Positions 19,595 to 60,763 of a stretch of DNA of 64,000 nt are shown here, piece after piece. Each line of letters opens with the position of its first letter. The first letter of the stretch is position 1. A program made the position numbers and the translations under genes. The stretch comes from a virus (taxonomy: Duplodnaviria; Heunggongvirae; Uroviricota; Caudoviricetes), in the IMG/VR virus record IMGVR_UViG_3300047444_000753, positions 69,256 to 133,255 of that record; one strand, written 5' to 3'. The notes beneath the pieces are model-generated. The model saw only the letters and a program-made list of their open reading frames with translations, made no database searches and was not told the origin of the DNA.

Positions 19595-19606
19595 GAATTG
19601 CAAAAC

Positions 19607-19645
19607 AGAAAACCCCCGGCACCCTCTAAGGACCGGGGGTTCTCT
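19607..19645 (+). terminator. intrinsic terminator
   Basis: AACCCCCGG...CCGGGGGTT stem. Confidence 0.7.
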
Positions 19646-19744
19646 GTGTCTCGTACTCTCAACCACTAGACCCTTAAAGGGTATGCGAGGGTGGGTCTGG
19701 GGTCAAGTCCACATAACTGCATATTACTGTGGTACACTTAATGC

Positions 19745-20242
19745 ATGACACTTACTAAGACTTACCCATTCATGTCCAACCTGATCTTCCAGAATGTCAT
19801 AGTCCATGACGAATGCTGGGAGTGGCAGGGAGTCCAGCGCAAAGGCTATGGCCGGATCTCGGTCGATAGCAAGCAGTACTCCGTACATCGTGTGGTCTTC
19901 GCAGACATTCATGGCCCCATTCCTGAGGGGATGACCGTGCTACACACCTGCGACAATCCTCCCTGTTGTAGGCCTGAGCACCTCAGGCTAGCGACACAGG
20001 CAGAGAATATGGCTGACATGCTGGCCAAGGGTAGGCACGTACCGGGGACGGGAGGGACACCACCCCACGCATTCGGAGTAGGACACGCTAACGCGAAGAT
20101 GACGGACGAGATCGTTCTTGCGATCCGAGCGAGGTACGCAGAGGGTGCTATCACACAGAAGGAACTGGCCACCGAGTTCGCAGTGCACCAGAGCCAAGTC
20201 TCCCGGGCCATCAGTGGTAAGGGTTGGGGCCACCTCCTCTAA
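19745..20242 (+). CDS. HNH endonuclease with C-terminal HTH
   Basis: CWEWQG...GYG...VHRVVF...VLHTCDNPPCCRPEHL...ENMAD; C-terminal TQKELATEFAVHQSQVSRAI; leaderless after TGTGGTACACT. Confidence 0.9.
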   Translation: MTLTKTYPFMSNLIFQNVIVHDECWEWQGVQRKGYGRISVDSKQYSVHRVVFADIHGPIPEGMTVLHTCDNPPCCRPEHLRLATQAENMADMLAKGRHVPGTGGTPPHAFGVGHANAKMTDEIVLAIRARYAEGAITQKELATEFAVHQSQVSRAISGKGWGHLL

Positions 20243-20247
20243 CGCGA

Positions 20248-20628
20248 ATGCGGTACACCCTAATGCGGTTGCGGTCTTAGTGGATGCGGTACACCCTAAT
20301 GCGGTGCACATGGATGCGGTTACGGCTATTAAGGATGCGGTGCCTGCCATGCGGTACTAGTGCATGCGGTGCGGTATCCCGGATGCGGTTGACTAGGATG
20401 CGGTACTAGGGCATGCGGTGCGGTGTTCCGGATGCGGTTGCGGTCAGATAGCATGCGGTGCGGTTGTAGGCATGCGGTGGCCCTCCTTTTGCGGTTAGGG
20501 GCATGCGGTGCGGCTAAGTCGATGCGGTGGCCCTCCTTTGCGGATGCGGTGATGCGGTTGCCGTTTTTGGCATGCGGTGATGCGGTTGACTCGATGCGGT
20601 CGTAAATTGATGCGGTGCGGCATGCGGT
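20248..20628 (+). repeat. array of about 23 same-strand ATGCGGT heptamers
   Basis: Copies at 20248, 20263, 20284, 20299, 20314 ... 20610, 20622; spacing mostly 14-22 bp with variable spacers. Confidence 0.9.
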
Positions 20629-20813
20629 TGCAACTTTTGTAAGTAGGGGTGGTCAGGGGTGGTCAGAGCTCCTCTGTGGGAGAAACCCCCGGCGTGTTTC
20701 AGATGCCGAAAACGATTTCCACCTCAACAAAAACCAATTTTCGATACGTTAGTTGACATCTATGTATGTATAAGATATACTTGATACATACCCAACGAAA
20801 GGAATCAAAGACT

Positions 20814-20942
20814 ATGAAGAAATTTCTCGACTACCAGCTCAACCCGGTGCTCTTCGTCATCGTTTTCATCTACGTGATGACTGACAAGTTCGCCCGGTCG
20901 ATTTTCGTCAAGGATTACAAGCCCAAGCGCCTGTACTTCTAG
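20814..20942 (+). CDS. small membrane protein (42 aa)
   Basis: TTGACA-N17-TATACT (20753-20781), AAGGA RBS, one TM. Confidence 0.7.
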   Translation: MKKFLDYQLNPVLFVIVFIYVMTDKFARSIFVKDYKPKRLYF

Positions 20943-20962
20943 CACACCGACTGAAACTCACT

Positions 20963-21254
20963 AGCGCTATATAAGCGCTATAGAAACACACCAACACAAG
21001 CTCACCACCTCGGGGCGAAGCTCACCAGCTCGGCGGAGGTTCACCACCTTAGCGCTACATAAACACAATAGCGCTAGCGCTTCAGCGCTACACATACACG
21101 CATACGCACACAGGCACATCGCCACACCACCTCGGGAGAGGATCACCACCTCAAATCGTCTCACCACCTCAAGCGCTAGCGCTAACACATAGCGCTTTAG
21201 CGCATAGCGCTACGCGGAGGTTCACCAGCTCGGGAGGGCGAGACTCACCAGCAC
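20963..21254. repeat. alternating blocks of AGCGCT palindromes and CACCASCTC repeats
   Basis: 10 AGCGCT and 8 (T)CACCA(C/G)CTC-like copies in interleaved blocks; non-coding. Confidence 0.8.
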
Positions 21255-21449
21255 ATGGGTTTAGCCCCTTACAAAATTTGCAAGGGGTTAGGGGGGGGGG
21301 GGTGTTGGGTTTTCGATTCCGGGGGGCGGGACCTTCTGGCCGGGTGGGGTTCAGGCCGTCGCCCTACTTCCCACCCGTTTACAATTCTTGCAACGTCTCG
21401 CAAGAATCATAACCAGTGGCCCGGGGCCGTCGCTCCGGTTGATGACTTC

Positions 21450-21588
21450 AGTATTGCATATTCAATTGCACGTGTCAACATATCGCCCTGCCCAACATGC
21501 AGGGCGTTTAGCGACTCCCATAACTCTCCCCTATGGATCTGGAGATGTCAAGTCGCTGCAGGACTTGCGCATTGGTTTACATGCGTGT
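21450..21588. promoter_or_regulatory. divergent promoter pair
   Basis: Minus strand TTGACA(21478)-N17-AATACT; plus strand TTGCGC-N17-TATTGT upstream of 21629. Confidence 0.65.
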
Positions 21589-21628
21589 ATTGTAGAGATA
21601 TCAGCTCAACCAAACCAAGGAGCACACC

Positions 21629-21913
21629 ATGACTGTACAGGTCCGTTACACCGCGTCCGTCGTCAATTTCGACACTGCCGAAACTTTTACGGGCTGGGTT
21701 GATCCTAGCTGGAACCGCTGGGAACTGCGGAGCACGGCGGAAGATGTCCGTACGTTCGAATACGCGGATGAGGCGGAAGCGCTGGCCGCGATTGAATCGG
21801 AGATTGGCGCACCCGATAATTGGGACGGTGAGTCCTATTACGCGGCGGACGCGGCCATCAACTTGGAGTCCGGCGAACACTGGCTGTACGCGGCGCACGT
21901 GACCGAAAGCTAG
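21629..21913 (+). CDS. acidic early protein
   Basis: AAGGAG RBS; 19 D/E versus 4 R in 94 aa; followed by terminator. Confidence 0.85.
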   Translation: MTVQVRYTASVVNFDTAETFTGWVDPSWNRWELRSTAEDVRTFEYADEAEALAAIESEIGAPDNWDGESYYAADAAINLESGEHWLYAAHVTES

Positions 21914-21977
21914 GCCCCCGCGAAAGTACCCCGGCGCTGAGCGCGTCGGGGGCTTTTGCATTTTTTGCAACGGGGCT

Positions 21978-22048
21978 AAAAAAAAGACCCAGAGTGGGCC
22001 TTCCCCGGGACCCGTCTCAGGGCCCCTATCATGTTCGGCTTCCGCCTA
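21978..22048 (-). ncRNA. putative small RNA (family 1, copy A)
   Basis: Minus-strand TTGACA(22084)-N18-AATAAT, three hairpins, T8 tract; no ORF; homologous to 23221-23296. Confidence 0.5.
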
Positions 22049-22238
22049 TACTCAATTATTGCATACAAAATACACACGTGTCAACCCCTAAACCAGACTT
22101 GCGTATCAACATATACCCGTGTACAGTATAGGTATCAGCAACGGAGTAAGGGCCACGGGCCAGACTCAACCGGCGCTGACCAACACTTTACAGGTCCCAA
22201 CGCCTGACCGCTTATCCGCTAGCCCAAGGAGTCTTATA

Positions 22239-22499
22239 ATGTTTGCAAAGCAGATCCGCATCCGTCCGCTACACCTCCCCACCGCGTGGAGTGTCGTACT
22301 GTTGCTGCTGATCCTCCCGGCCCTGTACGTCGAGCTGACGGGAGATTTCCCGGGCCGCGTGTGGTTCTACGGGCAGGAGGAAGATAGCGAGCTGGCGGGC
22401 GTATTCCTCAACGCTCACAACTACATCTTTACAACTCTTGCAACCACGTGGGACGTCGTCGGACGGCTTGCGGGCAGCGTCAAAGAATTCTTTGCCTGA
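22239..22499 (+). CDS. membrane protein
   Basis: AAGGAG RBS; TM helix; start codon overlaps a TTATAA-N3-TTGCAA site. Confidence 0.7.
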   Translation: MFAKQIRIRPLHLPTAWSVVLLLLILPALYVELTGDFPGRVWFYGQEEDSELAGVFLNAHNYIFTTLATTWDVVGRLAGSVKEFFA

Positions 22500-22561
22500 C
22501 GGGTTGACATCCGTATACCTTATGCCTTAGACTAGTAGTACACCAACAAAGGAGAAACACC

Positions 22562-22888
22562 ATGGCAAATCTCACCGCTACCCCCAAAGACCTCACCTCG
22601 GCCATCGCGGCGCTGAACGGTAAGAGCGTCCGGAAGATCGGGAACAACACGGAGCTGCGCTTGGAAGTGACCCCCAAGGGCCGTAGCGTCGTGGCCACGC
22701 TGCACGGCAACAGGATTGTCCGCTATGAGGCTGACGGTGTCTACGTGAGCTGGGCAGGTTACACCACCAGCACCACCCGTGACCGGCTGAACCAGCTCTC
22801 CCCGGCCCGATTCAACATCGCCGGACGCCTCCCCCACATCGACGGCGAAGAGGTATTTAGCCTCGAATGGGTCAAGGTCACCAACTAA
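22562..22888 (+). CDS. conserved-type phage early protein
   Basis: LHGNRI...WAGYTTSTTRDRLN motif; own promoter, RBS and terminator. Confidence 0.85.
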   Translation: MANLTATPKDLTSAIAALNGKSVRKIGNNTELRLEVTPKGRSVVATLHGNRIVRYEADGVYVSWAGYTTSTTRDRLNQLSPARFNIAGRLPHIDGEEVFSLEWVKVTN

Positions 22889-22963
22889 CCGGGACGCCCG
22901 GGGTCTAACAAGCCCCGGGCTATCCGCCCTTACAATTCTTGCAATTCTTACAAAGGAGACATC

Positions 22964-23152
22964 ATGTCGGCACTAATCGTGAACCACTCACAGACTGTGG
23001 CGGAACGGCTCGAATACATCCGGGGCGAGATTGAGGCGGAACGGGTGAGCTACTGGGAGATTTCGGAGCTGCAGGGACTGGCGGCTTTCATCGACCCGGG
23101 CGACGTGCTGCTGCTGGAGTGGGCAGGAGTCCCGGAATTCCCGGAAGACTAG
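22964..23152 (+). CDS. small acidic protein
   Basis: AAGGAG RBS, downstream terminator hairpin. Confidence 0.8.
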   Translation: MSALIVNHSQTVAERLEYIRGEIEAERVSYWEISELQGLAAFIDPGDVLLLEWAGVPEFPED

Positions 23153-23220
23153 CCTAAACAAATATCCCCCGGCGCTACGGCGTCCGGGGGTATTTGCGTT
23201 GCAATTTTTGCAACGGGCCT

Positions 23221-23296
23221 AAAAAAAAAGGGTCAGACTCGGCCTACCCCCCGACCCCGCTGCAGGGCCGATATCTACGGGCTGCTTGCCCGTCTA
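23221..23296 (-). ncRNA. putative small RNA (family 1, copy B)
   Basis: Minus-strand TTGACA(23331)-N18-TAGAAT, hairpins, T9 tract; no ORF. Confidence 0.5.
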
Positions 23297-23421
23297 CTTC
23301 AATTCTAAGGCATAACGTATACAGATGTCAAGCCCAAAAGAAATAAAAGATTATCGGGTTTAGGGCTTGCGTAGGGGTTTACATGCATGTATAGTAGATA
23401 TTACCAACGAAGGAGAACATC

Positions 23422-23598
23422 ATGGGAATGACCCGAAAAACTCAGCAGGAAGGCGTTATCTACGTCACGCCTAACCGGGCAGTATTCGCATCGCCGGACG
23501 GTGAGGGCCGTGTCTGGTTTGACACGGTCAACGAAGCTAAGGGCGAAACGGGCCTGACAAAAGTTGTCTACTTGCTGGAAGCGCCGGAAGACTACTGA
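23422..23598 (+). CDS. hypothetical protein (58 aa)
   Basis: TTGCGT-N17-TATAGT promoter, AAGGAG RBS. Confidence 0.8.
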   Translation: MGMTRKTQQEGVIYVTPNRAVFASPDGEGRVWFDTVNEAKGETGLTKVVYLLEAPEDY

Positions 23599-23675
23599 GC
23601 AACCGGGGCCGGGTGGACATTCTGCCCGGTCCCGTGTATGCTAGAACTACCAACAAAGAACAAAGGATATGCAAA

Positions 23676-24308
23676 ATGGTCTTCCGTCTTGATAACACTC
23701 TCACCGAACCGCGCAACGTTGTGTACGCTGCTAAGCCTAACTCGGCGCGTATCCTCGACGTGTACCGTCAAGCGACGTTGCAGGAATTGCAGGATGGGCT
23801 TGATTGGTACCGTGACGCTCACGCTATCGCTGCTGCACTGGATCCGGCGCGGCCTCACGCTGCAGCGGGCGTACTGGCGGCGCTCTCGCCTATGCAGAGC
23901 TGGGGGCAGAATGTAAACCTTGCAGCGCGGGCCTACGCTGACGGCAGCGCCACGGGCACCCTGTTTCGTAACTGCGCCAAAGCTGACGCGATTATGGCCG
24001 GTGCTGAACCGCTCGACGTGTTGCGCGGGGATAAGGTTTGCAACTTTTACAAAGCTATTGCAGATCCCCACGACGGCGGCGCTGTAGTGATTGACCGCCA
24101 CGCGTTTGATATCGCGGTAGGCCGGATCACTAACGATAAGTCCCGGACGGCACTGGGCCGTAAGGGCGTCTATGACGCGTTCGCTAGGGCCTACGTACGG
24201 GCAGCTAAGGCCGTGTCTGTAGAGACTGGGCTGGACGTATCGCCCTGTCAGATGCAGGCGATAACGTGGACAGTCTGGCGGCGTCTCAAGGGCCTTGACG
24301 GACTGTAA
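23676..24308 (+). CDS. phage early protein, possibly HhH DNA-glycosylase-like fold
   Basis: GLDWY...AALSPMQSWGQN...KVCNFY...VVIDRHAF...AY..AA...PCQMQAITW. Confidence 0.55.
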   Translation: MVFRLDNTLTEPRNVVYAAKPNSARILDVYRQATLQELQDGLDWYRDAHAIAAALDPARPHAAAGVLAALSPMQSWGQNVNLAARAYADGSATGTLFRNCAKADAIMAGAEPLDVLRGDKVCNFYKAIADPHDGGAVVIDRHAFDIAVGRITNDKSRTALGRKGVYDAFARAYVRAAKAVSVETGLDVSPCQMQAITWTVWRRLKGLDGL

Positions 24309-51643: not shown

Positions 51644-54600
51644 ATGTTTGATCGCAGCGCCGCAGTAAAGCTCCAGCTACGAGATGCCAAAGGCCGATTC
51701 ATCAAGATGGGTTCCCACGTAAAGTGGACATCCCTCTCCAGTGGCAATGATGTTTCCGGCATCGTGCGCGGCGAAGACGGCAACAACGTCATCATCGAAT
51801 TCCAGCATGGCGGAAAGCCGTACACTATCCATGTTCCGCACACCAAGCTCAATGTCATCAACGAGAAGGCATCGCTTGACTCTGCGTACGTGCAGAAGAT
51901 GGGCGGACACGTTGACACCCCGAACGTCAACGACCCCGGCGTAACCCCCGGACACGCACCCAGTGCCCCCGCTGCACCGTCCAGCCCGGGTACACAGGGT
52001 GGCCTGATCAAGAACTTCGCCACGTTCAACACCAACGAGACCACCTATAAGGTTGGCTCCGCTGACGGCGAAAAGATTATGACCCCGGTCTCCGACCTCA
52101 AGCTCGGCGATCAGGTCTTCCCTGTCGCCAAGGCCAGTACGTTCCAGAAGAGCCCCTACAATGCCAAGGGCAATGGGTCCAACACCCTCATCCAGAAGTT
52201 CGGTCCCGGCGTCGGAACCGTCACCAAGATCGACCCTAAGGGCAACTGGGTAGTCATTACAGATGACTCCAAGCCACCCAAGACCTACGCGATCTCCAGC
52301 GGTCACTTTGTCTTCAAGCGTGATGCCAACACCGAGCGGGCCGTCCTCAACGCCCAGAAGATGGAAGCCTCCACCATCTACGCTGGCAAGACTCCGCCGT
52401 CCCTCCCGTGGATCGACGGGCTCAAGACACCCAACGCACCCGAGACTCCGGCCCCCAACGTTCCGGCTGAGCCGAACATGCCAATTTCCGACCACGTCGG
52501 TGTCTCCGACATGCCTGTTGGGTCCCGCATCCCGCTCGGCGGCGAACAGGGCTTCGCCACAAAGACCGGCGACAACAAGTGGGTCAACGAGAAGACCGGC
52601 ACCCAGTTTGACGACAAGTCCGCAGAATACATCCTGAAGACTCCGACCCCGGAGAAGACAGCCGCCGACCCGAACCAGCACGTCGGCCCTGCCCACGCGG
52701 ACCAAGTTGCCAAGGACAAGGCGAGCACCGTGGAGAACCCGCTGGGGGACAACTTCAGCGAGCTCCCACCGATGACCTCCTACCAGAAGGGTGACGTTGC
52801 CCTCCTCAAGGACGGCACCCTCGCACCATGGATCGGCAAGGGCCAGATCACCCTCGAAGACGGCTCCAAGGTCATGGGCAACAAGTTTGCCGTTGACGGC
52901 GTCGGCAAGGGTGTGGCCGGTAAGGACATCGCCAAGTCCTACCGTCCGAAGAGCTTTGTCATCCACTCCCCAAGCGAGAGCCCGTTCGGCCCTGACGCCC
53001 ACGGCTACAGCTTCGATCTCTCCAAGCCCAACAACGAGAACTTCAAGGCCGGAGACCTCGTTGTCTACGGCAAGGAGAACAATCAGGGCAAGATCTTCTC
53101 CGTCAACCCTACGAACATCCTTGTCGAGAAGATGAACTCCGACAAGACCGTCCACGGCACAGCCACCATCGTCGCCGGTCAGGTCCACGGAAAGTACATC
53201 AAGGATAAGTCCTCCTCTGCTGTATCTGCACCGGACAGCAAGCTGGATTCGATCAGCCCCGCCGAGGATCTTACCCCTGCCGAAGAGCAGAAGATCGCGG
53301 ACAGTACGGCACAGAAGCTTGCCGACTTCGCCGAGAGCGTAGACTTCACGGTCTACCCTGCTGGCACATCTTTCTGGGCCAAGGACGGCAACCCGCTGGT
53401 TTCCGCTGCGCTCGAAAAGATGGGCGTGGCCAAGAACAAGCCGACCCTCGTTTCGGATGAGGAATTCGCCAAGCTCAGGGATGAGGGCCACCACGTCATC
53501 TACCGTGGAATCAGTGGCGCAGTTCAGGGCACTACTGCAGAGCAGGCCCAGCAGGACATCATCTCCTCCGACTCTCCGAAGATCGGCAACGGTCTCTACG
53601 GCGGCGGCACATACTTCACAAACAACCCCGATGCTGCCGCGCACTACGGCCACAGCAACGGTGCAGTCTCCACCTACGCCCTGACACCTGACGCCAAGAT
53701 GGTCACGATGGATGACATCGAAAAGATCAGGGACGACATCAAGGCCGAGCTCGGCGACAAGATGACGCCCAAGGTGTCGGCTGCGCTGGATGATGTCGGT
53801 TTTGTCGCAGTGATGTCGGGATTCGATGGCATCTTTGTGCCCGGGGGGAACGGCAACGACAACGGTGCCACGAACTTCTACACCATGCTCAACCGTGGGA
53901 CCATGGCACACACCGAGAACAACATCGTCCCCACCGATAAGTTCACCTTCAAGAATACAGATATGCCATGGGGCAACAAGAAGGAGACGGCCTTCGGCAA
54001 GGCTGTGCCTACCGGCAACCCGGCCCTGAAGAACCCCGAGGCCGCTCCGGCAGAACCGAACGCGCCGAAGCCTCAAGGCAAGGCACCAGCCTTCAAGCAG
54101 ACCCCTGCAGCCCCCGCTGAGGCACCCGCAGAGCCTTCGGCACCTGCCACACCCGACGCACCTGCTGAGCCTGCTATAGCCCCAGAGCCAGCGGCTGAGG
54201 CACCAAAGGCTGATGAGGCCACACCGACCTTCCCAGACAAGGGCAAGACCGGCACGGACAGCGCCGGAAACACCGTCAAGGTCAACGACCAGATCGTCCA
54301 CCCCAAGAAGGGTAAGGGAACGGTCGCCATCGTGCTGCCGTCCACGGACTCGGTCAAGGCGTACTACCCGGACGGCACTTACGCGGTCCACAAGCAGCAC
54401 ACCATCACCAAGGTGGATGCTGAAAAGTCTGCCGCCCCGTCGTCCCTCCCGTCCAACATGGCGGTTGGCGACTCGGGCATGGACCCCGCGACCCACACCA
54501 AGTTCATGGTGGGCAAGAACAACTCCATGCTCCACATCGGTGATAAGGTTACCCACAGTAATGGGGATACCGGAACCATCACCGCCATCTACACAGGGGA

Positions 54601-57600
54601 GAAGAACAAGACCGCCAGTGTCCTGTGGAGCGACGGCACAAAGTCCACCAAGAAGGCATCCGTCCTAGAGTCCGAGCACAAGCTGCCCGACGCTTCCGGA
54701 AACGCTCCGGAGGCCTCCAAGGCGGGCGAAGCTCCCGCCGAATCTGCCGGAAGCCCCGAGGGGAAGACGCTCTCCGAATTTGGCAAGGACAAGCTCTCCC
54801 AGCTTCCGGTCGGAACTGAGCTCAAGCACGACGGCTCTAACATCACCATACGCAAAATGGGTGAAGACCAGTGGCACGCGTTCTACAACGGACAGAAGAT
54901 GGAGAACGCTCCGGAGCTGTCCAATGATGACTTCAAGGGATTCCCGGACGCCAAGGCCGACAAGTACGCCATCTCGCTGCCAAGTGCAGCAGATGCGTCC
55001 GCTGCGGCACCAGTAGCCAAGCCGGATGCAGTGCCATACACACCTGCCCACGAGAAGGCACTGGTTGACTTCAAGGCCAACCAGATCGCCATCGGACAGC
55101 ACCTGCGTGGCAACGGTGAGGGTTCCACGGAGAACGCCGGACCTATCATCTACGCCATGGATGACCTGCTCAAGGACTCCACCCTCAAGGAAGCCGCCAC
55201 TGTCTGGCGCGGCTTCACCTACAAGGATTCAATCGATCCGCACGCCACGAAGCTCGGGGACACCTTCGCCCCCGGCGTCATCTTCCGTGACAAGTCGTTC
55301 ATCTCCACCTCCCATGACCAGAACGTCGCCCTCCAGTCCATGGAGAACGAGGATGGTCACAAGGTCCTCGTCAAGTTCGACCTGCCTGCCGGATACCACG
55401 CACACGATGTCAACTACGACGGTATCTCCGACGAGGCAATCAAGGGCCAGAGCCACGAGCAGGAAATGCTCCTGCCCCGCAACATGGACTTCATCATCAC
55501 GGGCGTGGACAAGGGTACGGATGTCAACGGCAACCCCATCACCCACCTGTCCGTCACTGGCGTGCTCATGGATCCTGCGGACGGCCAGATCAGCAAGGGC
55601 ATGGTCGAGGTCAACCCCGACACTGGTGTTGCCGACAAGCCGTTCCAGATCCTCGCGGACTCCGGAGCTGACGGCGACGGCTACCACCCTAGCGGCTCTT
55701 GGGGCCTCTTCGGTGCCGCAGGTGTCATGGTTGAAGCCAACGACCCGAACACGGGCGAAAAGCGATACCTTATCGTAGAAAACGGTGCGCTTCACGAGAA
55801 GAAGAATCAGGGTCTCTGGCAGCTTCCGGGCGGTGCCCTCAACGGGTCCGAAAACGCCTACCAAGGCGCTGCCCGCGAGATGCACGAAGAGCTGGATGTC
55901 CACCCGGACACCCTTGCCAACTTCTCCCACGCCGGAGACGTGGTCTACTCCAACCAGCAAGAGGGTGCCAAGGAGTGGAAGTACACCAACATTGCTGCCG
56001 TCCACGACGGGCCGACCTTCGATGTAAAGATCGACGTCATCGAGACCTCCGACCACAAGTGGGTCACCGCTGATGAACTGAAGCAGATGGGTGCTGACGG
56101 TAAGCTCCTGCCTGCCTTCGCGGCCAACGTAGACAAGCTTCTGGATGTCTACGGGAAGAACAACGGTACCGACACCAAGACGCTGGACATCAAGAACTTC
56201 GAAAAGGTCTCCGGCCCAATGGGCTCCAACTCCGGTGGCACATACACCGATAAGGCCACGGGCGAGAAGTACTACATCAAGTTCGGCATGTCAGAGGACC
56301 ATGCCCACAACGAGATTCTGGCCTCGAAGATCTATCAGGCCATGGGCGTCAATTCGTCGCACCAAGAGCCCGTCAATATGGGCAACGGCAAGCTTGGCAT
56401 CGCATCCAAGATCATTGAATCCGATGACAGCCACACCTTCTCCAACCTTGAGAACCCCGAGTACCTGAAGAAGATTCAGGACGACTTCGCTGTAGATGCC
56501 CTGCTCGCCAACTGGGACGTCGCAGGCATGGGCTATGACAACATCATCACCGATAAGAACGGTGACCCGGTTCGTGTCGATCCCGGCGCAGCACTGCGCT
56601 ACCGCGCACAGGGATCCCCGAAGTCCAAGTTCGACGGCACCGCCGATGAGTGGGACTTCCTGCGCGACGGGTCCAACCACGAGTCCTCTGGCCTGATCTA
56701 CAACAAGAAGCTGTTCGGCTCCATGAGCAACCAGCAGCTGATCGACTCCGCTGACAAGCTCAACGGGTTGACAGATGACAAGATCGATAGTATCGTAGAC
56801 TCTGTAGGGTTTGATAAAAAGGACAGCGAGTTCTTCAAGCAGACCCTGAAGGAACGCCGAGATGATATTCTCAAGCGTGCCTCACTACTAAACGACCCAA
56901 CAAAGAAGGATGACAATGGACAACATCAAGAAGGATCCGGAGACTCCGGACACAACGACGCCAAAGCTGGATCCGAAGAGGGCCAGCCTGTACAGCTGGA
57001 CTCCGGATCAGGTGCAGATCATGGTGCCGCCCAAGCCGGAGAAATAGCCCCGAAGGTCGGGGACCAGCTTACTCTCAAGCAGCTCGACAAACTTCCTACG
57101 GGAAGTGTTGTCCAGTACGGAGAGAGTGGTGCGCCTCTCGAACTGACCAAGAACGGCGACTGGGAGCTCCCGGACGGCAAGGTACTGGAATACGACTATG
57201 TCCGGGACCTCTACGACGACGGCGACCTCACCCTCACGCACTTCCCGTCTGCCCCGCAGGCCGGGAAGCTTGCAGTCGGCGACAAGATCAAGGGTGCCGA
57301 CATCCGCCAGCTCCCTGTCGGCTCCAAGCTGTCACAGGGTTCGATGCACTATGTCAAAAAAGAAGACGGTACTTGGAGCCAGAACGGCACCTCCGTCAAG
57401 ATCAATAACCAGCAGCTGGCTGATTTCTATGACAACGGTCTGAACCTTGACGCAATCGGGGCTCCTACCGAGGAGTCACCTGCTGCCGCTGCGGGCCACA
57501 AGGTCGGGGATCAGGTTGGCAGCATGGATACCCCTGACCTGCCAGTGGGCACCAAGATCAAGAGCAAGTACGGATCCGAGTACACCAAGAAGGCCGCTAA

Positions 57601-60600
57601 CCACTGGGTCTCCAAGACCGGGATGGAGTATAGCGACCACGACTTCTCCGACGATCCCGACTACGTCGTTGACTCCCTTCCCGCGATGGCCACCACTACA
57701 GGTGACAACGGTCTTGCTGCTGGCGACATCATCGACATGCAGAAGCTTGATAAGCTGCCTATCGGCGGTGTCATCGAAACTTCTAACGGCCTGAAATTCA
57801 CCAAGGACACAGAAAATTACTGGTCATCCAACGGAGTATCAGGGTGGGCTACCAGCAGCCTCTCGCATGCCAACAAGGGCGAATCCGCTGTCAAGGTCAT
57901 CAGCGTCCCTGACACAGCCAGCTCCGCCCCCGGATCTGATCCGATGGTCGGAAAGAGGCTGGGATCAGACGGCGTACCCAAGGCTGCGGATCTACCAGTA
58001 GGTACCGTAATCAAGGGAGAGTCCTCCACATATACCAAGATGGCCGATGGTGCAGGTAATGGCACTGGTATGTGGAAGAACGACTCAGGAAACCTTGTAC
58101 ACGAGGGCACACTCGATTACTGGGCAGAAGGCGGTAACTCCAATTTGGAGATTACCTCGATGGGATCTGCAAATGGTGTGGCAGATAGTGGTCCTAAGGT
58201 TGCCAAGTTCAGCGACCTCAACTCTTACGCGCCCGGAACTGTGCTCAGCCCGGGTGGCAGCGCCAAGCTCATCAAGCAGGCGGACGGTGGCTGGAAGTCT
58301 ACCTTCAGCGGCTCAGTATTCTCTACTCAGCAGGTGAAGGATAGCTACAATGAGGGTGACCTTACCATTGACTCTACACCTGACCACAAGGTTGGTGATA
58401 GCGTCTCTAGCGCTAACCTTGGGACACTTCCGGTAGGTACTGAGCTAGAGAATGGGTCCGGGGTCCTGTTGAGCAAGACAGCACACGACGAATGGACTTC
58501 TGAGTTCGGAACACCATACAGCGACAGTGAGCTGCAGGGTGCGCAGTCCAGCTACAAGATTTCTACCGTTGCGGAGGCTCAGGCTCCGGGTCAGGCTGAA
58601 GAGGATCCTATCGGACCTGAAGCTGCTTCATCGACTCCGTCAGTTCCGGGAAAGAACGGCGAAGCCATCAGCGTGGGCGACAACATTATCTGGCAGACAA
58701 AGGGTACCCCCGGCGTTGTAGCGGACATCAATGTTGAATCTGGTAAGGTCCAGATGCAGTTTGAGGATGGGACCAAGAAGTGGTACCAGTCTTCCAAGAT
58801 GGTCAAGCAGGCCGTAACTGCTCCGGCATATCAGGCCCCCGTTATCAAGAAGAAGGAGGCTGACCCGTCAAGCCCGCTCTATGGCCAGCCTAAGCCTGAG
58901 ATGCCTAAGGAGCTCGACGCTCCACAGGCCGAGACCTTCCTGCCTGATGGATTCATCGAGGAGATCGAGCAGCGCTATGCCGCAAAGATCAACCCTTCGT
59001 GGTCCAAGAGCTCCCCACAGGAGTCTTTCTACTGGTCAAAGGTTACCGAGTTCCAGAATACTGGGGATCTCTCAGCACTGAAGACGCTTCATGAGAAGAA
59101 GTACATCAGTGATGCGATGTTCATCAAGGCTGAGGACCGCATTGATGAATTTGCCAAGAAGAAGAAAGCTTTGGACGCTGAAAAAGCCAAGGCAGCCTCT
59201 GACTACGCGATTCAGCTAAAGGCATGGAACGATGCCAACGGTATCTCCACTACATCCGGATTCGAGGACCACTTCCCGGAACCGGCAACTGCAGCCGATG
59301 AATGGACCAAGGAAAACGGGTTTGTCACTATGCCCGATGGTTCAGTCATTGCTGACTGGTCCAAGGCAACAGAGGGAAGCCACTCGGTAGCCTCCATCCT
59401 CGACTCCATGGGCAAGGATGATGCGCTGGCGGGCCACGGAATGTCCGCCATGGTTGACTCGGACTGGATCCGAGACAACAATGTCCGCTTCACCAAAGTC
59501 GTGGACGATAACGGTGTGGCCAGACTACAGGCTCGTTTTGAAGTGTCCGAGTTCCACAAGAAGGATGTCGTCGCGAACATGGGGACAGCGGACAGCTACG
59601 GATTCCAAGCAGGGTTCTTCGGCAAGGCGTCCAACAAGCTGTTCAGCATCTTCTCAAAGAAGACCAAGGGATTCGATAATGTTAGTGGCAAGACCTACGA
59701 TAAGAAGGTTGGAAACACTGACATCAAGTTCCAGTCAGCACAGTCTGGTGGCGCGGGTAATAACCGAAGTGCTCTTTCGGCAGCTGCATACATCACTCTT
59801 CCGGAAAACGGAACCATACAGGATTTCGAAGCAGCTTTGAAGTCCATGGGTATTACTGATGCTCACCCGTCCCCGAAGGAGTCTGTGGACTTCAGTAAGA
59901 AGAAGCAGCTTGTCTCAACCTTCAAGGGATTTGTTGGTGAGGGTAATACAATGTACGAGCAGAATCCGGCTCTTCTTGATACCCACGTCAATAGTGTCTT
60001 GGCTGATCTTGGATACAACATTGAAGATTTCAAGCTTCTCCACACCGAGCTTGGCTTCTACCAGTACCGGGTACCAAGCAAGCTTCGTGACAAGCTGGCT
60101 GCAGAGAGTGGCGTCAAAGCCTACTCCCACGGCAACATCGACTTCCTCAATGAGACCCACCACAGCAAGTATGAGTATGCTGAGGATGGCACCAAGGTAA
60201 GCAGCCTCAATAAGTGGAAGTTCGACCCGAACAGCCCGCTACGTTCCGTTGCCCGTTTCGCTGGGGCTGCCAAGGGATACCTTTCCACAGGCCGTCGTAT
60301 CCAAGAGGGCGACAACTCGGTCGGAATGTCGCCGGACGCGGACATCCGCTCCGGAGGTGCCCGCTACCTCTTCACTACACCAAGGAAGAATAGCGGCTGG
60401 ATCCACGATCTCGGATACCCTTCGGGAACTGTCCTACACCCGACCCTTGCCTACCAGTACCTAGGAAACTACGCCAACCACGAGGATAACGGTGACGGCA
60501 GCCGCTACGAGGGCAATGTGCTACATGACACACTGTCCGGGTACTTCGGCAGCAGTCCGGAGATGATGGTCCTCAATGGTGTCTCTGTCAAGGATACTTG

Positions 60601-60763
60601 GTTCTCCTTCACCAACTCCGAGCAGAAGCCGTTCCTCATCGACCAGCTACACGCTGCAGGTGTGGATGCAATCAACGGGATTCCCGTTGAGCAGTACTTC
60701 GTAATCCCCGGAGTAGACCAGATCCCTGACTGGATCGACCCGCACGCAAATGATGGACCGTGA
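51644..60763 (+). CDS. 3039-aa multidomain head-associated (polyvalent) protein: ART-like, VIP2-type ART, Nudix, kinase-like, repeats
   Basis: Continuous ORF after portal. YRG...GLYGGGTYF (about 53.5 kb); VWRG/FISTS/EQEMLL (55.2-55.5 kb); Nudix box GALNGSENAYQGAAREMHEELDV (55.8 kb); YIKF...ANWD...DN...VDPG (56.3-56.6 kb). Confidence 0.85.
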   Translation: MFDRSAAVKLQLRDAKGRFIKMGSHVKWTSLSSGNDVSGIVRGEDGNNVIIEFQHGGKPYTIHVPHTKLNVINEKASLDSAYVQKMGGHVDTPNVNDPGVTPGHAPSAPAAPSSPGTQGGLIKNFATFNTNETTYKVGSADGEKIMTPVSDLKLGDQVFPVAKASTFQKSPYNAKGNGSNTLIQKFGPGVGTVTKIDPKGNWVVITDDSKPPKTYAISSGHFVFKRDANTERAVLNAQKMEASTIYAGKTPPSLPWIDGLKTPNAPETPAPNVPAEPNMPISDHVGVSDMPVGSRIPLGGEQGFATKTGDNKWVNEKTGTQFDDKSAEYILKTPTPEKTAADPNQHVGPAHADQVAKDKASTVENPLGDNFSELPPMTSYQKGDVALLKDGTLAPWIGKGQITLEDGSKVMGNKFAVDGVGKGVAGKDIAKSYRPKSFVIHSPSESPFGPDAHGYSFDLSKPNNENFKAGDLVVYGKENNQGKIFSVNPTNILVEKMNSDKTVHGTATIVAGQVHGKYIKDKSSSAVSAPDSKLDSISPAEDLTPAEEQKIADSTAQKLADFAESVDFTVYPAGTSFWAKDGNPLVSAALEKMGVAKNKPTLVSDEEFAKLRDEGHHVIYRGISGAVQGTTAEQAQQDIISSDSPKIGNGLYGGGTYFTNNPDAAAHYGHSNGAVSTYALTPDAKMVTMDDIEKIRDDIKAELGDKMTPKVSAALDDVGFVAVMSGFDGIFVPGGNGNDNGATNFYTMLNRGTMAHTENNIVPTDKFTFKNTDMPWGNKKETAFGKAVPTGNPALKNPEAAPAEPNAPKPQGKAPAFKQTPAAPAEAPAEPSAPATPDAPAEPAIAPEPAAEAPKADEATPTFPDKGKTGTDSAGNTVKVNDQIVHPKKGKGTVAIVLPSTDSVKAYYPDGTYAVHKQHTITKVDAEKSAAPSSLPSNMAVGDSGMDPATHTKFMVGKNNSMLHIGDKVTHSNGDTGTITAIYTGEKNKTASVLWSDGTKSTKKASVLESEHKLPDASGNAPEASKAGEAPAESAGSPEGKTLSEFGKDKLSQLPVGTELKHDGSNITIRKMGEDQWHAFYNGQKMENAPELSNDDFKGFPDAKADKYAISLPSAADASAAAPVAKPDAVPYTPAHEKALVDFKANQIAIGQHLRGNGEGSTENAGPIIYAMDDLLKDSTLKEAATVWRGFTYKDSIDPHATKLGDTFAPGVIFRDKSFISTSHDQNVALQSMENEDGHKVLVKFDLPAGYHAHDVNYDGISDEAIKGQSHEQEMLLPRNMDFIITGVDKGTDVNGNPITHLSVTGVLMDPADGQISKGMVEVNPDTGVADKPFQILADSGADGDGYHPSGSWGLFGAAGVMVEANDPNTGEKRYLIVENGALHEKKNQGLWQLPGGALNGSENAYQGAAREMHEELDVHPDTLANFSHAGDVVYSNQQEGAKEWKYTNIAAVHDGPTFDVKIDVIETSDHKWVTADELKQMGADGKLLPAFAANVDKLLDVYGKNNGTDTKTLDIKNFEKVSGPMGSNSGGTYTDKATGEKYYIKFGMSEDHAHNEILASKIYQAMGVNSSHQEPVNMGNGKLGIASKIIESDDSHTFSNLENPEYLKKIQDDFAVDALLANWDVAGMGYDNIITDKNGDPVRVDPGAALRYRAQGSPKSKFDGTADEWDFLRDGSNHESSGLIYNKKLFGSMSNQQLIDSADKLNGLTDDKIDSIVDSVGFDKKDSEFFKQTLKERRDDILKRASLLNDPTKKDDNGQHQEGSGDSGHNDAKAGSEEGQPVQLDSGSGADHGAAQAGEIAPKVGDQLTLKQLDKLPTGSVVQYGESGAPLELTKNGDWELPDGKVLEYDYVRDLYDDGDLTLTHFPSAPQAGKLAVGDKIKGADIRQLPVGSKLSQGSMHYVKKEDGTWSQNGTSVKINNQQLADFYDNGLNLDAIGAPTEESPAAAAGHKVGDQVGSMDTPDLPVGTKIKSKYGSEYTKKAANHWVSKTGMEYSDHDFSDDPDYVVDSLPAMATTTGDNGLAAGDIIDMQKLDKLPIGGVIETSNGLKFTKDTENYWSSNGVSGWATSSLSHANKGESAVKVISVPDTASSAPGSDPMVGKRLGSDGVPKAADLPVGTVIKGESSTYTKMADGAGNGTGMWKNDSGNLVHEGTLDYWAEGGNSNLEITSMGSANGVADSGPKVAKFSDLNSYAPGTVLSPGGSAKLIKQADGGWKSTFSGSVFSTQQVKDSYNEGDLTIDSTPDHKVGDSVSSANLGTLPVGTELENGSGVLLSKTAHDEWTSEFGTPYSDSELQGAQSSYKISTVAEAQAPGQAEEDPIGPEAASSTPSVPGKNGEAISVGDNIIWQTKGTPGVVADINVESGKVQMQFEDGTKKWYQSSKMVKQAVTAPAYQAPVIKKKEADPSSPLYGQPKPEMPKELDAPQAETFLPDGFIEEIEQRYAAKINPSWSKSSPQESFYWSKVTEFQNTGDLSALKTLHEKKYISDAMFIKAEDRIDEFAKKKKALDAEKAKAASDYAIQLKAWNDANGISTTSGFEDHFPEPATAADEWTKENGFVTMPDGSVIADWSKATEGSHSVASILDSMGKDDALAGHGMSAMVDSDWIRDNNVRFTKVVDDNGVARLQARFEVSEFHKKDVVANMGTADSYGFQAGFFGKASNKLFSIFSKKTKGFDNVSGKTYDKKVGNTDIKFQSAQSGGAGNNRSALSAAAYITLPENGTIQDFEAALKSMGITDAHPSPKESVDFSKKKQLVSTFKGFVGEGNTMYEQNPALLDTHVNSVLADLGYNIEDFKLLHTELGFYQYRVPSKLRDKLAAESGVKAYSHGNIDFLNETHHSKYEYAEDGTKVSSLNKWKFDPNSPLRSVARFAGAAKGYLSTGRRIQEGDNSVGMSPDADIRSGGARYLFTTPRKNSGWIHDLGYPSGTVLHPTLAYQYLGNYANHEDNGDGSRYEGNVLHDTLSGYFGSSPEMMVLNGVSVKDTWFSFTNSEQKPFLIDQLHAAGVDAINGIPVEQYFVIPGVDQIPDWIDPHANDGP

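Follow-up and report, generated by a model that had tools for sequence, protein, structure and literature searches.

The stretch of DNA analysed here, which we call the window, comprises 64,000 nucleotides (nt) and corresponds to bases 69256–133255 of the IMG/VR virus record IMGVR_UViG_3300047444_000753, which has a length of 158,613 bp and a GC content of 57% and is rated 91% complete. Two short transcription units on its minus strand are the subject of this report: small RNA (sRNA) type A, or unit 1, and sRNA type B, or unit 2. Their parts are as follows.

22055–22084, minus strand: promoter of sRNA type A; −35 TTGACA at 22084–22079, 18-nt spacer with TG, −10 AATAAT at 22060–22055; 11/12 matches
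21978–22048, minus strand: sRNA type A, about 71 nt; start predicted from the −10 hexamer, end at U8
22046–22037, minus strand: type A hairpin 1, GGC-GGAA-GCC, with a GNRA tetraloop
22036–22027, minus strand: type A linker, GAACAUGAUA
22026–22007, minus strand: type A hairpin 2, GGGGCCC-UGAGAC-GGGUCCC
22006–21999, minus strand: type A G-rich segment, GGGGAAGG
22000–21986, minus strand: type A terminator stem, GGCCCA-CUC-UGGGUC, with U8 at 21985–21978
23302–23331, minus strand: promoter of sRNA type B; −35 TTGACA at 23331–23326, 18-nt spacer, −10 TAGAAT at 23307–23302; 11/12 matches
23221–23296, minus strand: sRNA type B, about 76 nt
23293–23277, minus strand: type B hairpin 1, ACGGGC-AAGCA-GCCCGU, followed by the linker AGAUAU
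23270–23252, minus strand: type B hairpin 2, CGGCCCUG-CAG-CGGGGUCG
23251–23230, minus strand: type B G-rich 3′ hairpin, with U9 at 23229–23221

The first-pass annotation, made from the letters alone, had proposed two related promoter-to-terminator cassettes at this locus, and the analysis bears this out. Both promoters rank among the best promoter matches of the region. When folded from their predicted starts, both RNAs form three hairpins followed by U8 (A) or U9 (B), with minus-strand fold energies of −32.1 and −33.4 kcal/mol, respectively (z = −2.4 and −2.5 against shuffled sequence), compared with a z of only −0.5 for the plus-strand fold of the units. The units are 78% identical on alignment, the divergent plus-strand promoter motif of family D5 beside each of them included, and differ by 1-nt indels. 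Hairpin 1 of unit 1, which had been drawn as GG-AAG-CC, is actually GGC-GGAA-GCC.

Relatives were sought by a pattern search and then with a covariance model, R1, built from both units; R2 is the model of type A. A blastn search with the region returned a sole match, in which 65 nt of unit 2 were 85% identical to Arthrobacter phage Racecar, while R1 matched four IMG/VR phage contigs and 18 soil metagenome contigs, and more copies were found in the Arthrobacter phages Mimi and Talia1610 and in loci reached via a neighbouring gene. In all, the soil metagenome contigs with the element number about 20. The copies typed as A or B in the first searches scored 39–73 bits; among the 29 typed copies, the lowest scores under R1 were 28.8 bits (locus L063, which reaches 52.8 bits under R2) and 22.8 bits (L038). 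A −10-like hexamer stands at a fixed upstream distance in 28 of these 29 copies, mostly ending no more than about 3 nt from the model start, and in most copies TTGACA, TTGACT or TTGCAT lies 17–18 nt upstream of that hexamer. Exactly one type A and one type B are present in each of G000, G002 and G004 (CheckV completeness 91–100%), and Racecar and Mimi carry type B only, within the terminal repeat. The portal protein of the window, which also encodes NAD-salvage enzymes, has 53% identity to the portals of the Arthrobacter phages Racecar, Mimi, Atuin and Talia1610, and the core of the RNA is 85–100% conserved between phages whose portal proteins are only 53% identical. Two paralogous structured RNA genes, each with its own promoter and terminator, are conserved in a clade of soil actinophages.

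Outside these loci the models gave little. Neither Atuin nor A3Wally, DSL-LC01 or Phendrix contained a model match; weak R2 matches in the Microbacterium phages Pumpernickel and Zooman were rejected, as they appear to be coding sequence without a promoter; and a search of 151 Actinomycetes genomes with R1 found no host homologue, which, given its strict filters and the lack of a positive control, is a weak negative. The first search pattern also picked out a conserved intergenic element in Streptomyces (L007:1480–1640 and eight further loci, L008–L010, L012–L014, L016 and L018), which is flanked by a divergent PspC-domain gene on one side and a PspC-domain histidine kinase and LuxR regulator on the other. 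It has about 30 nt (GATATCGGCCCTGAGGCGGGGACGGGGGAAG) in common with the type B core and contains the direct repeats GACCCTGAT and CCCTGGTCG; Rfam gave no match to it. Because its covariance-model score is low (25–33 bits only) and the helix is not kept, and with direct repeats that are operator-like, this element was not counted as a family member, and the Streptomyces matches are probably due to chance or unrelated.

The consensus of type A reads AUAG, a hairpin GCC-GNRA-GGC, the linker GAACAUGAUA, a hairpin G-NN-GCCC UGAGAC GGGU-NN-C, and GGGGAAGGCC; that of type B reads GUAGA, a variable hairpin, GAUAUC, a hairpin GGCCCUG-NAG-CGGGGUC, and GGGGGGAAGGCC. Common to both are the 5′ UAG, hairpin 1, the GAUA linker, hairpin 2 and a G-rich GGGG(G/A)AAGG tail, of which the run of G residues lies partly inside the terminator hairpin in the two copies of the window. 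Hairpin 2 hardly varies in its apical half (GCCC-U[GNRA]C-GGGU in A and GCCCUG-NAG-CGGGG in B), and the same holds for the G·U pairs of that hairpin, the GAUA linker and the G-rich tail, while the bases of the stems are free to vary as long as pairing is kept. This had been anticipated from the two units of the window, whose stems differ in sequence and still pair, and the relatives supply compensatory changes in both hairpins and in both types. In type A hairpin 2, 100% of the aligned cells are paired, with two pairs showing four and six double changes, and for the second and third pairs the combinations GG/CC, CC/GG, CG/CG, GU/AC and GC/GC were found; the covariation score, 0.253, compares with 0.068 for shuffled alignments (0 of 500 shuffles reach the observed value) and a maximum of 0.059 for slid controls, and RNAalifold independently predicts the same two type A helices. 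Type B hairpin 2 is likewise 100% paired, with three double changes in L047 and, in Mimi, one more from C-G to A-U. All 25 copies folded contain hairpin 1; in type B at least six different stems occur, and in type A the loop is GGAA, GAAA, GCAA or GAGA, all of the GNRA type, on stems that flip between GCC/GGC and GGC/GCC.

The G·U pairs also identify the functional strand. They are invariant in 13 of 13 type A copies and, at two positions, in 12 of 12 type B copies, and on the opposite strand they would be C·A mismatches, which settles the minus strand as the functional one. The attributes of a structured sRNA gene, namely a promoter and terminator of its own, compensatory changes in its helices and a strand-specific fold, were thus found together. 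The proposal of a novel phage sRNA family, as opposed to mere bidirectional terminators, is upheld by the homologues, the conserved promoters and the covariation.

The same alignments bear on whether the units might instead be small protein genes, in which either an 18-codon sense open reading frame (ORF) of type A or an ORF of 50–62 amino acids on the opposite strand is translated. The units had been described as having no ORF or ribosome-binding site, which does not hold literally, because unit 1 has an 18-codon sense ORF with GGAAGG 5 nt upstream of its conserved AUG, and plus-strand shadow ORFs exist (over unit 2, at 23194–23346, 50 amino acids); the substance of the description stands, in that neither is gene-like. 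The AUG of CAUGAUAG is kept in all 13 type A copies checked, preceded at 5 nt by GGAAGG or AAGG, and the encoded peptide begins MI(G/A)ALRRV(P/A)GK. Its stop, however, wanders from 18 to more than 98 codons, often lying beyond the terminator (in unit 1, the U-tract ends 2 nt before it), the coupled Gly/Pro and Ala/Ala changes track base pairing rather than protein logic, and the homologous type B has neither an AUG nor an ORF. GenBank annotators have called opposite-strand ORFs, Racecar gp22 (L001:1486–1638) and Mimi gp21 (L055:1455–1604), as hypothetical proteins of 50 amino acids spanning type B, but no frame on that strand is open across the homologues: which frame is open depends on the lineage, L039 and L041 offer no more than short spans between stops, and units 1 and 2 differ by 1-nt indels. 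No ribosome-binding site was found before the annotated opposite-strand starts. Since the frame is unconserved and a ribosome-binding site is lacking, gp22 and gp21 are most likely mis-annotated shadow ORFs over an RNA gene on the other strand, as judged from sequence comparison. Without a start, frame and stop that are conserved together across homologues, translation of the units appears very improbable.

As to known RNAs, no Rfam 15 family reached its gathering threshold in the window or in the eight related loci searched, and under permissive thresholds the best scores were 12.7–15.9 bits, compared with gathering thresholds of 39–76 bits, with E-values of 2–10. The family is new, of the general kind of phage-encoded small RNAs and unrelated to the families described in Rfam 15. 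The type A hexaloop, UGAGAC (UGCGAC in L063 and L036), reads as a GNRA tetraloop (GAGA or GCGA) closed by U·C. The first-pass annotation had seen in the letters CUGAGAC, which are indeed present in type A, the loop of a Leu(GAG) anticodon arm, and had suggested a tRNA-Leu(GAG) decoy for anticodon nucleases. An anticodon arm would require a 7-nt loop of the form Y-U-NNN-R-N on a 5-bp stem; the loop is 6 nt on a stem of 7 bp, counting 7 nt leaves arms of unequal length, and type B has a triloop. Moreover, the relatives that change the loop to UGCGAC keep the GNRA motif and not the anticodon, and ARAGORN found no tRNA-like gene at the units, nor did Rfam find a match. We consider this idea hardly credible.

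Three other classes of RNA invite comparison. RNA anti-CRISPRs (Racrs) are phage-encoded solitary mimics of CRISPR repeats, and they resemble the present units in being small phage RNA cassettes, here with a conserved hairpin that could sequester a host protein. In 401 Actinomycetes genomes, which include three unpublished ones (G037, G041 and G048) that carry no claim individually, the type B hairpin occurred 0–7 times per genome, equal to the reversed-pattern control. Without an array-like excess in these genomes, CRISPR-repeat mimicry was rejected, and the units differ from Racrs in this respect. Species 1 and 2 (band C/D) of phage T4 are abundant, structured, stable phage-encoded RNAs whose function is not known. 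The present RNAs are like them in being structured and phage-encoded without a known function, but share no sequence or Rfam relationship with them and form an actinophage family with two paralogous types and explicit covariation. ANTAR target RNAs likewise consist of two hairpins in tandem before a terminator, and a hexaloop occurs in them as it does here. In the ANTAR motif each hairpin carries a hexaloop whose first base is A and whose fourth is G, whereas in the present RNAs hairpin 1 has a tetraloop or is variable, the one hexaloop is UGAGAC and Rfam gives no match.

The surroundings of the two cassettes in the window are as follows.

21629–21913, plus strand: gene upstream of the sRNA A site; its terminator converges on sRNA A
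21929–21975, plus strand: converging terminator of gene 21629–21913; hairpin at 21929–21951, followed by CTTTTGCATTTTTTGCAACGGGG, a T-rich palindrome; borders directly on the 3′ end of sRNA A
22094–22133, plus strand: divergent promoter motif of family D5 (CTTGCGTA...TGTACAGTATAGGT); serves gene 22239–22499, which has a ribosome-binding site and ATG
23166–23218, plus strand: converging terminator of gene 22964–23152; hairpin CCCCCGGCGCTACGGCGTCCGGGGG, then GCGTTGCAATTTTTGCAACGGGC; abuts the 3′ end of sRNA B
23362–23401, plus strand: divergent promoter motif of family D5, with −10 TATAGT; serves gene 23422–23598, which has a ribosome-binding site and ATG

Each sRNA thus lies in the gap that separates a terminator on the plus strand from the promoter following it on that strand. 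That the sRNA promoters diverge from gene promoters had been claimed at first sight, and the D5 motif beside both units agrees with it. The tail shared by both units, T7-AG(C/G)CCCGTTGCAAAAA, also described then, occurs exactly twice in the window, with 0.00 expected by chance, but its TTGCA-N-TGCAA is the T-tract or palindrome of the converging plus-strand terminator and a member of the window-wide motif family D8/D16. Between 10568 and 35480 of the window, TTGCAA-N3-5-TTGCAA palindromes of families D8 and D16 commonly lie 3′ of GC-rich terminator hairpins, of which they form the T-rich tract, and the same is seen in relatives such as L005 and L027. Four back-to-back divergent promoter pairs were found in the window (21478/21560, 22084/22094, 23331/23362 and 25811/25831), each consisting of a minus-strand promoter of the TTGACA type and a plus-strand promoter of the D5 type (CTTGCGTA...TATAGT).

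This arrangement recalls the lambda OOP RNA, a 77-nt promoter-to-terminator RNA opposite the early rightward operon, which overlaps cII and targets it by perfect antisense pairing. Like OOP, the present RNAs are short, self-contained phage transcripts with their own sigma-70 promoter and intrinsic terminator, directed against early gene flow. An insulator of this kind would keep early transcription units apart, read-through between them being blocked or processed by convergent transcription and by complementarity to plus-strand transcripts that read through. The cassettes of the window, L061, L063 and L065 do face the gene flow and abut the terminator of the upstream gene, and the plus strand carries every gene between 16 and 27 kb whose AAGGAG-ATG start is convincing. 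On the other hand, the present RNAs overlap no gene on the opposite strand, their sequence and structure are conserved across distant phages, and they lack a complementary target in the genome. Neither sequence nor structure would have to be conserved in an insulator, whereas here the core is highly conserved and the stems covary. In addition, the cassettes point either way with respect to conserved neighbours, type B being co-oriented with them in L003, L004, L034 and L047. An OOP-like cis-antisense or insulator role is rather improbable.

The cassettes also trade places, L045 having a type B at the A site of the window and G001 a type A at its B site, and behave as mobile, self-contained units. 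Type B often adjoins a gene of the DUF7178 family, but in more distant phages this gene lies 1–3.5 kb from the RNA or is missing within 4 kb. As the distance grows or the gene is absent in these phages, we read the adjacency, confined to close relatives, as synteny and not as a module, and rejected a functional link between the two. In the window, the DUF7178 (phrog_3842) gene lies at 23613–24308 on the plus strand and likely starts at ATG 23676, which has a ribosome-binding site and gives 210 amino acids as in the homologues, rather than at GTG 23613.

Two paralogous copies per genome, with hairpin RNAs directly after early promoters, are also a property of the HK022 putL/putR and lambda nutL/nutR sites. 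The HK022 put RNA acts in cis on its own polymerase, which then reads through terminators into the operon, and the present cassettes would, by analogy, be cis elements whose nascent two-hairpin RNA modifies RNA polymerase to resist termination. As in put, the order is a strong promoter, two hairpins and a terminator, and in the L003-type phages type B is found upstream of co-oriented genes. In type A, the apex of hairpin 2 (GCCCUGAGACGGG) resembles boxB of the lambda nut hairpins GCCCUGAAAAAGGGC and GCCCUGAAGAAGGGC, read from NC_001416, in having GCCCUGA...GGG and a GNRA-type loop, a resemblance of one hairpin arm only: the 5′ arm is common to boxB (GCCCU-GAAAA-AGGGC) and type A (GCCC-U[GAGA]C-GGGU), but the type A loop is one nt shorter and closed by U·C, and type B has a triloop. 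The linkers, GAACAUGAUA or AGAUAU, contain no boxA-like CGCUCUUA, R2 gives the lambda nut sites no score, and no arginine-rich N-like peptide was seen among the neighbouring genes. The cassettes end at their own terminators, and no coding sequence was found downstream of them on the minus strand of the window, and therefore no co-oriented operon, so that a leader for downstream genes was rejected there. Nor would a cis-acting leader survive inversion, and the cassette is inverted between relatives. An antitermination role is, overall, very unlikely.

The conserved and apparently unpaired G-rich segment common to types A and B, together with the independence of orientation, would also suit a base-pairing riboregulator, in which C-rich host RNAs are regulated or sponged through pairing with the GGGG(G/A)AAGG tail or the GAUA linker. 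Candidate targets might include an mRNA, the region of 16S rRNA that pairs with the Shine–Dalgarno (SD) sequence, or a C-rich-loop sRNA such as the actinobacterial 6C RNA. Such complementarity does not discriminate, because any run of C pairs trivially with a run of G, and in the window copies part of the G-run lies within the terminator hairpin. In the 158-kb phage genome, no complement to the conserved single-stranded segments was found besides the genes' own complement, and an antisense regulator of phage genes was rejected because no complementary site exists elsewhere in it. Riboregulation by base pairing is possible but unlikely.

We favour instead, with a probability of roughly 0.55, a new family of paralogous, self-contained sRNA genes that are expressed early and act in trans, probably by binding protein. 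The sigma-70-type promoters would be used by the host RNA polymerase early in infection, against the surrounding early genes, to give structured RNAs of about 70–80 nt ended by the intrinsic terminator, and these may bind a protein in trans, acting as a decoy or sponge that ties up a factor of the host or the phage, or forming a subunit of a ribonucleoprotein; antisense pairing would not be their mode of action. It is the combination of paired stem bases that vary with an apex, G·U pairs, linker and tail that do not that leads us to infer sequence-specific recognition by a protein. Several points weigh against this reading. The shuffle statistics given above overstate independence, because the sequences are mutually related; the AUG of type A is invariant and accompanied by a weak SD-like motif; and the start, end and abundance of sRNAs A and B are predictions. 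Furthermore, the Racecar-like and L003-like lineages have a conserved 3′ extension of 100–130 nt, and their extended copies are co-oriented just upstream of the DUF7178 gene, where the element could be a leader. More specifically, the sRNAs might be early decoys, in which the invariant apex of hairpin 2 and the G-rich tail imitate a determinant of a host RNA and capture a host protein, for which a defence nuclease or toxin, a ribosome-associated factor and an RNA chaperone would be candidates. We advance this version with little confidence; if true, it would mean an RNA-based device for host takeover or counter-defence in large actinophages, with two specialized paralogues.

Few structured small RNAs of phages are known and, to our knowledge, none has been described for actinobacteriophages. 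The present family is distinguished by its clear covariation, by two paralogous types side by side and by strong early-type promoters. The uncultured contigs carry no annotation of the element, and the Racecar and Mimi records inspected list it wrongly as protein; there the annotation of gp22 and gp21 should probably be corrected accordingly. Because the cultured members Racecar, Mimi and Talia1610 grow on Arthrobacter globiformis B-2979, the function of the RNAs is directly testable.

Further observations were made in the window. A third minus-strand unit lies at 21262–21478, with a promoter TTGACA-17-AATACT (with TG) at 21478–21450; it would give an RNA of about 180 nt with a very stable fold (−76.7 kcal/mol), contains a C12 run and has the hairpin CCCCUUGCAAAUUUUGUAAGGGG at its end. 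The plus-strand ORF over it (21255–21632) looks spurious, and no homologue of the unit was found in the loci fetched. A stretch of about 2 kb (19600–21600) is gene-poor, with promoters on both strands and arrays of ATGCGGT-type repeats at 20260–20540 (families D14, D17 and D20), and could be an origin or regulatory region. Finally, a protein of 3039 amino acids is encoded directly after the portal gene, at 51644–60763 on the plus strand, and contains an ADP-ribosyltransferase domain (residues 1133–1292) and a NUDIX domain (residues 1373–1485).

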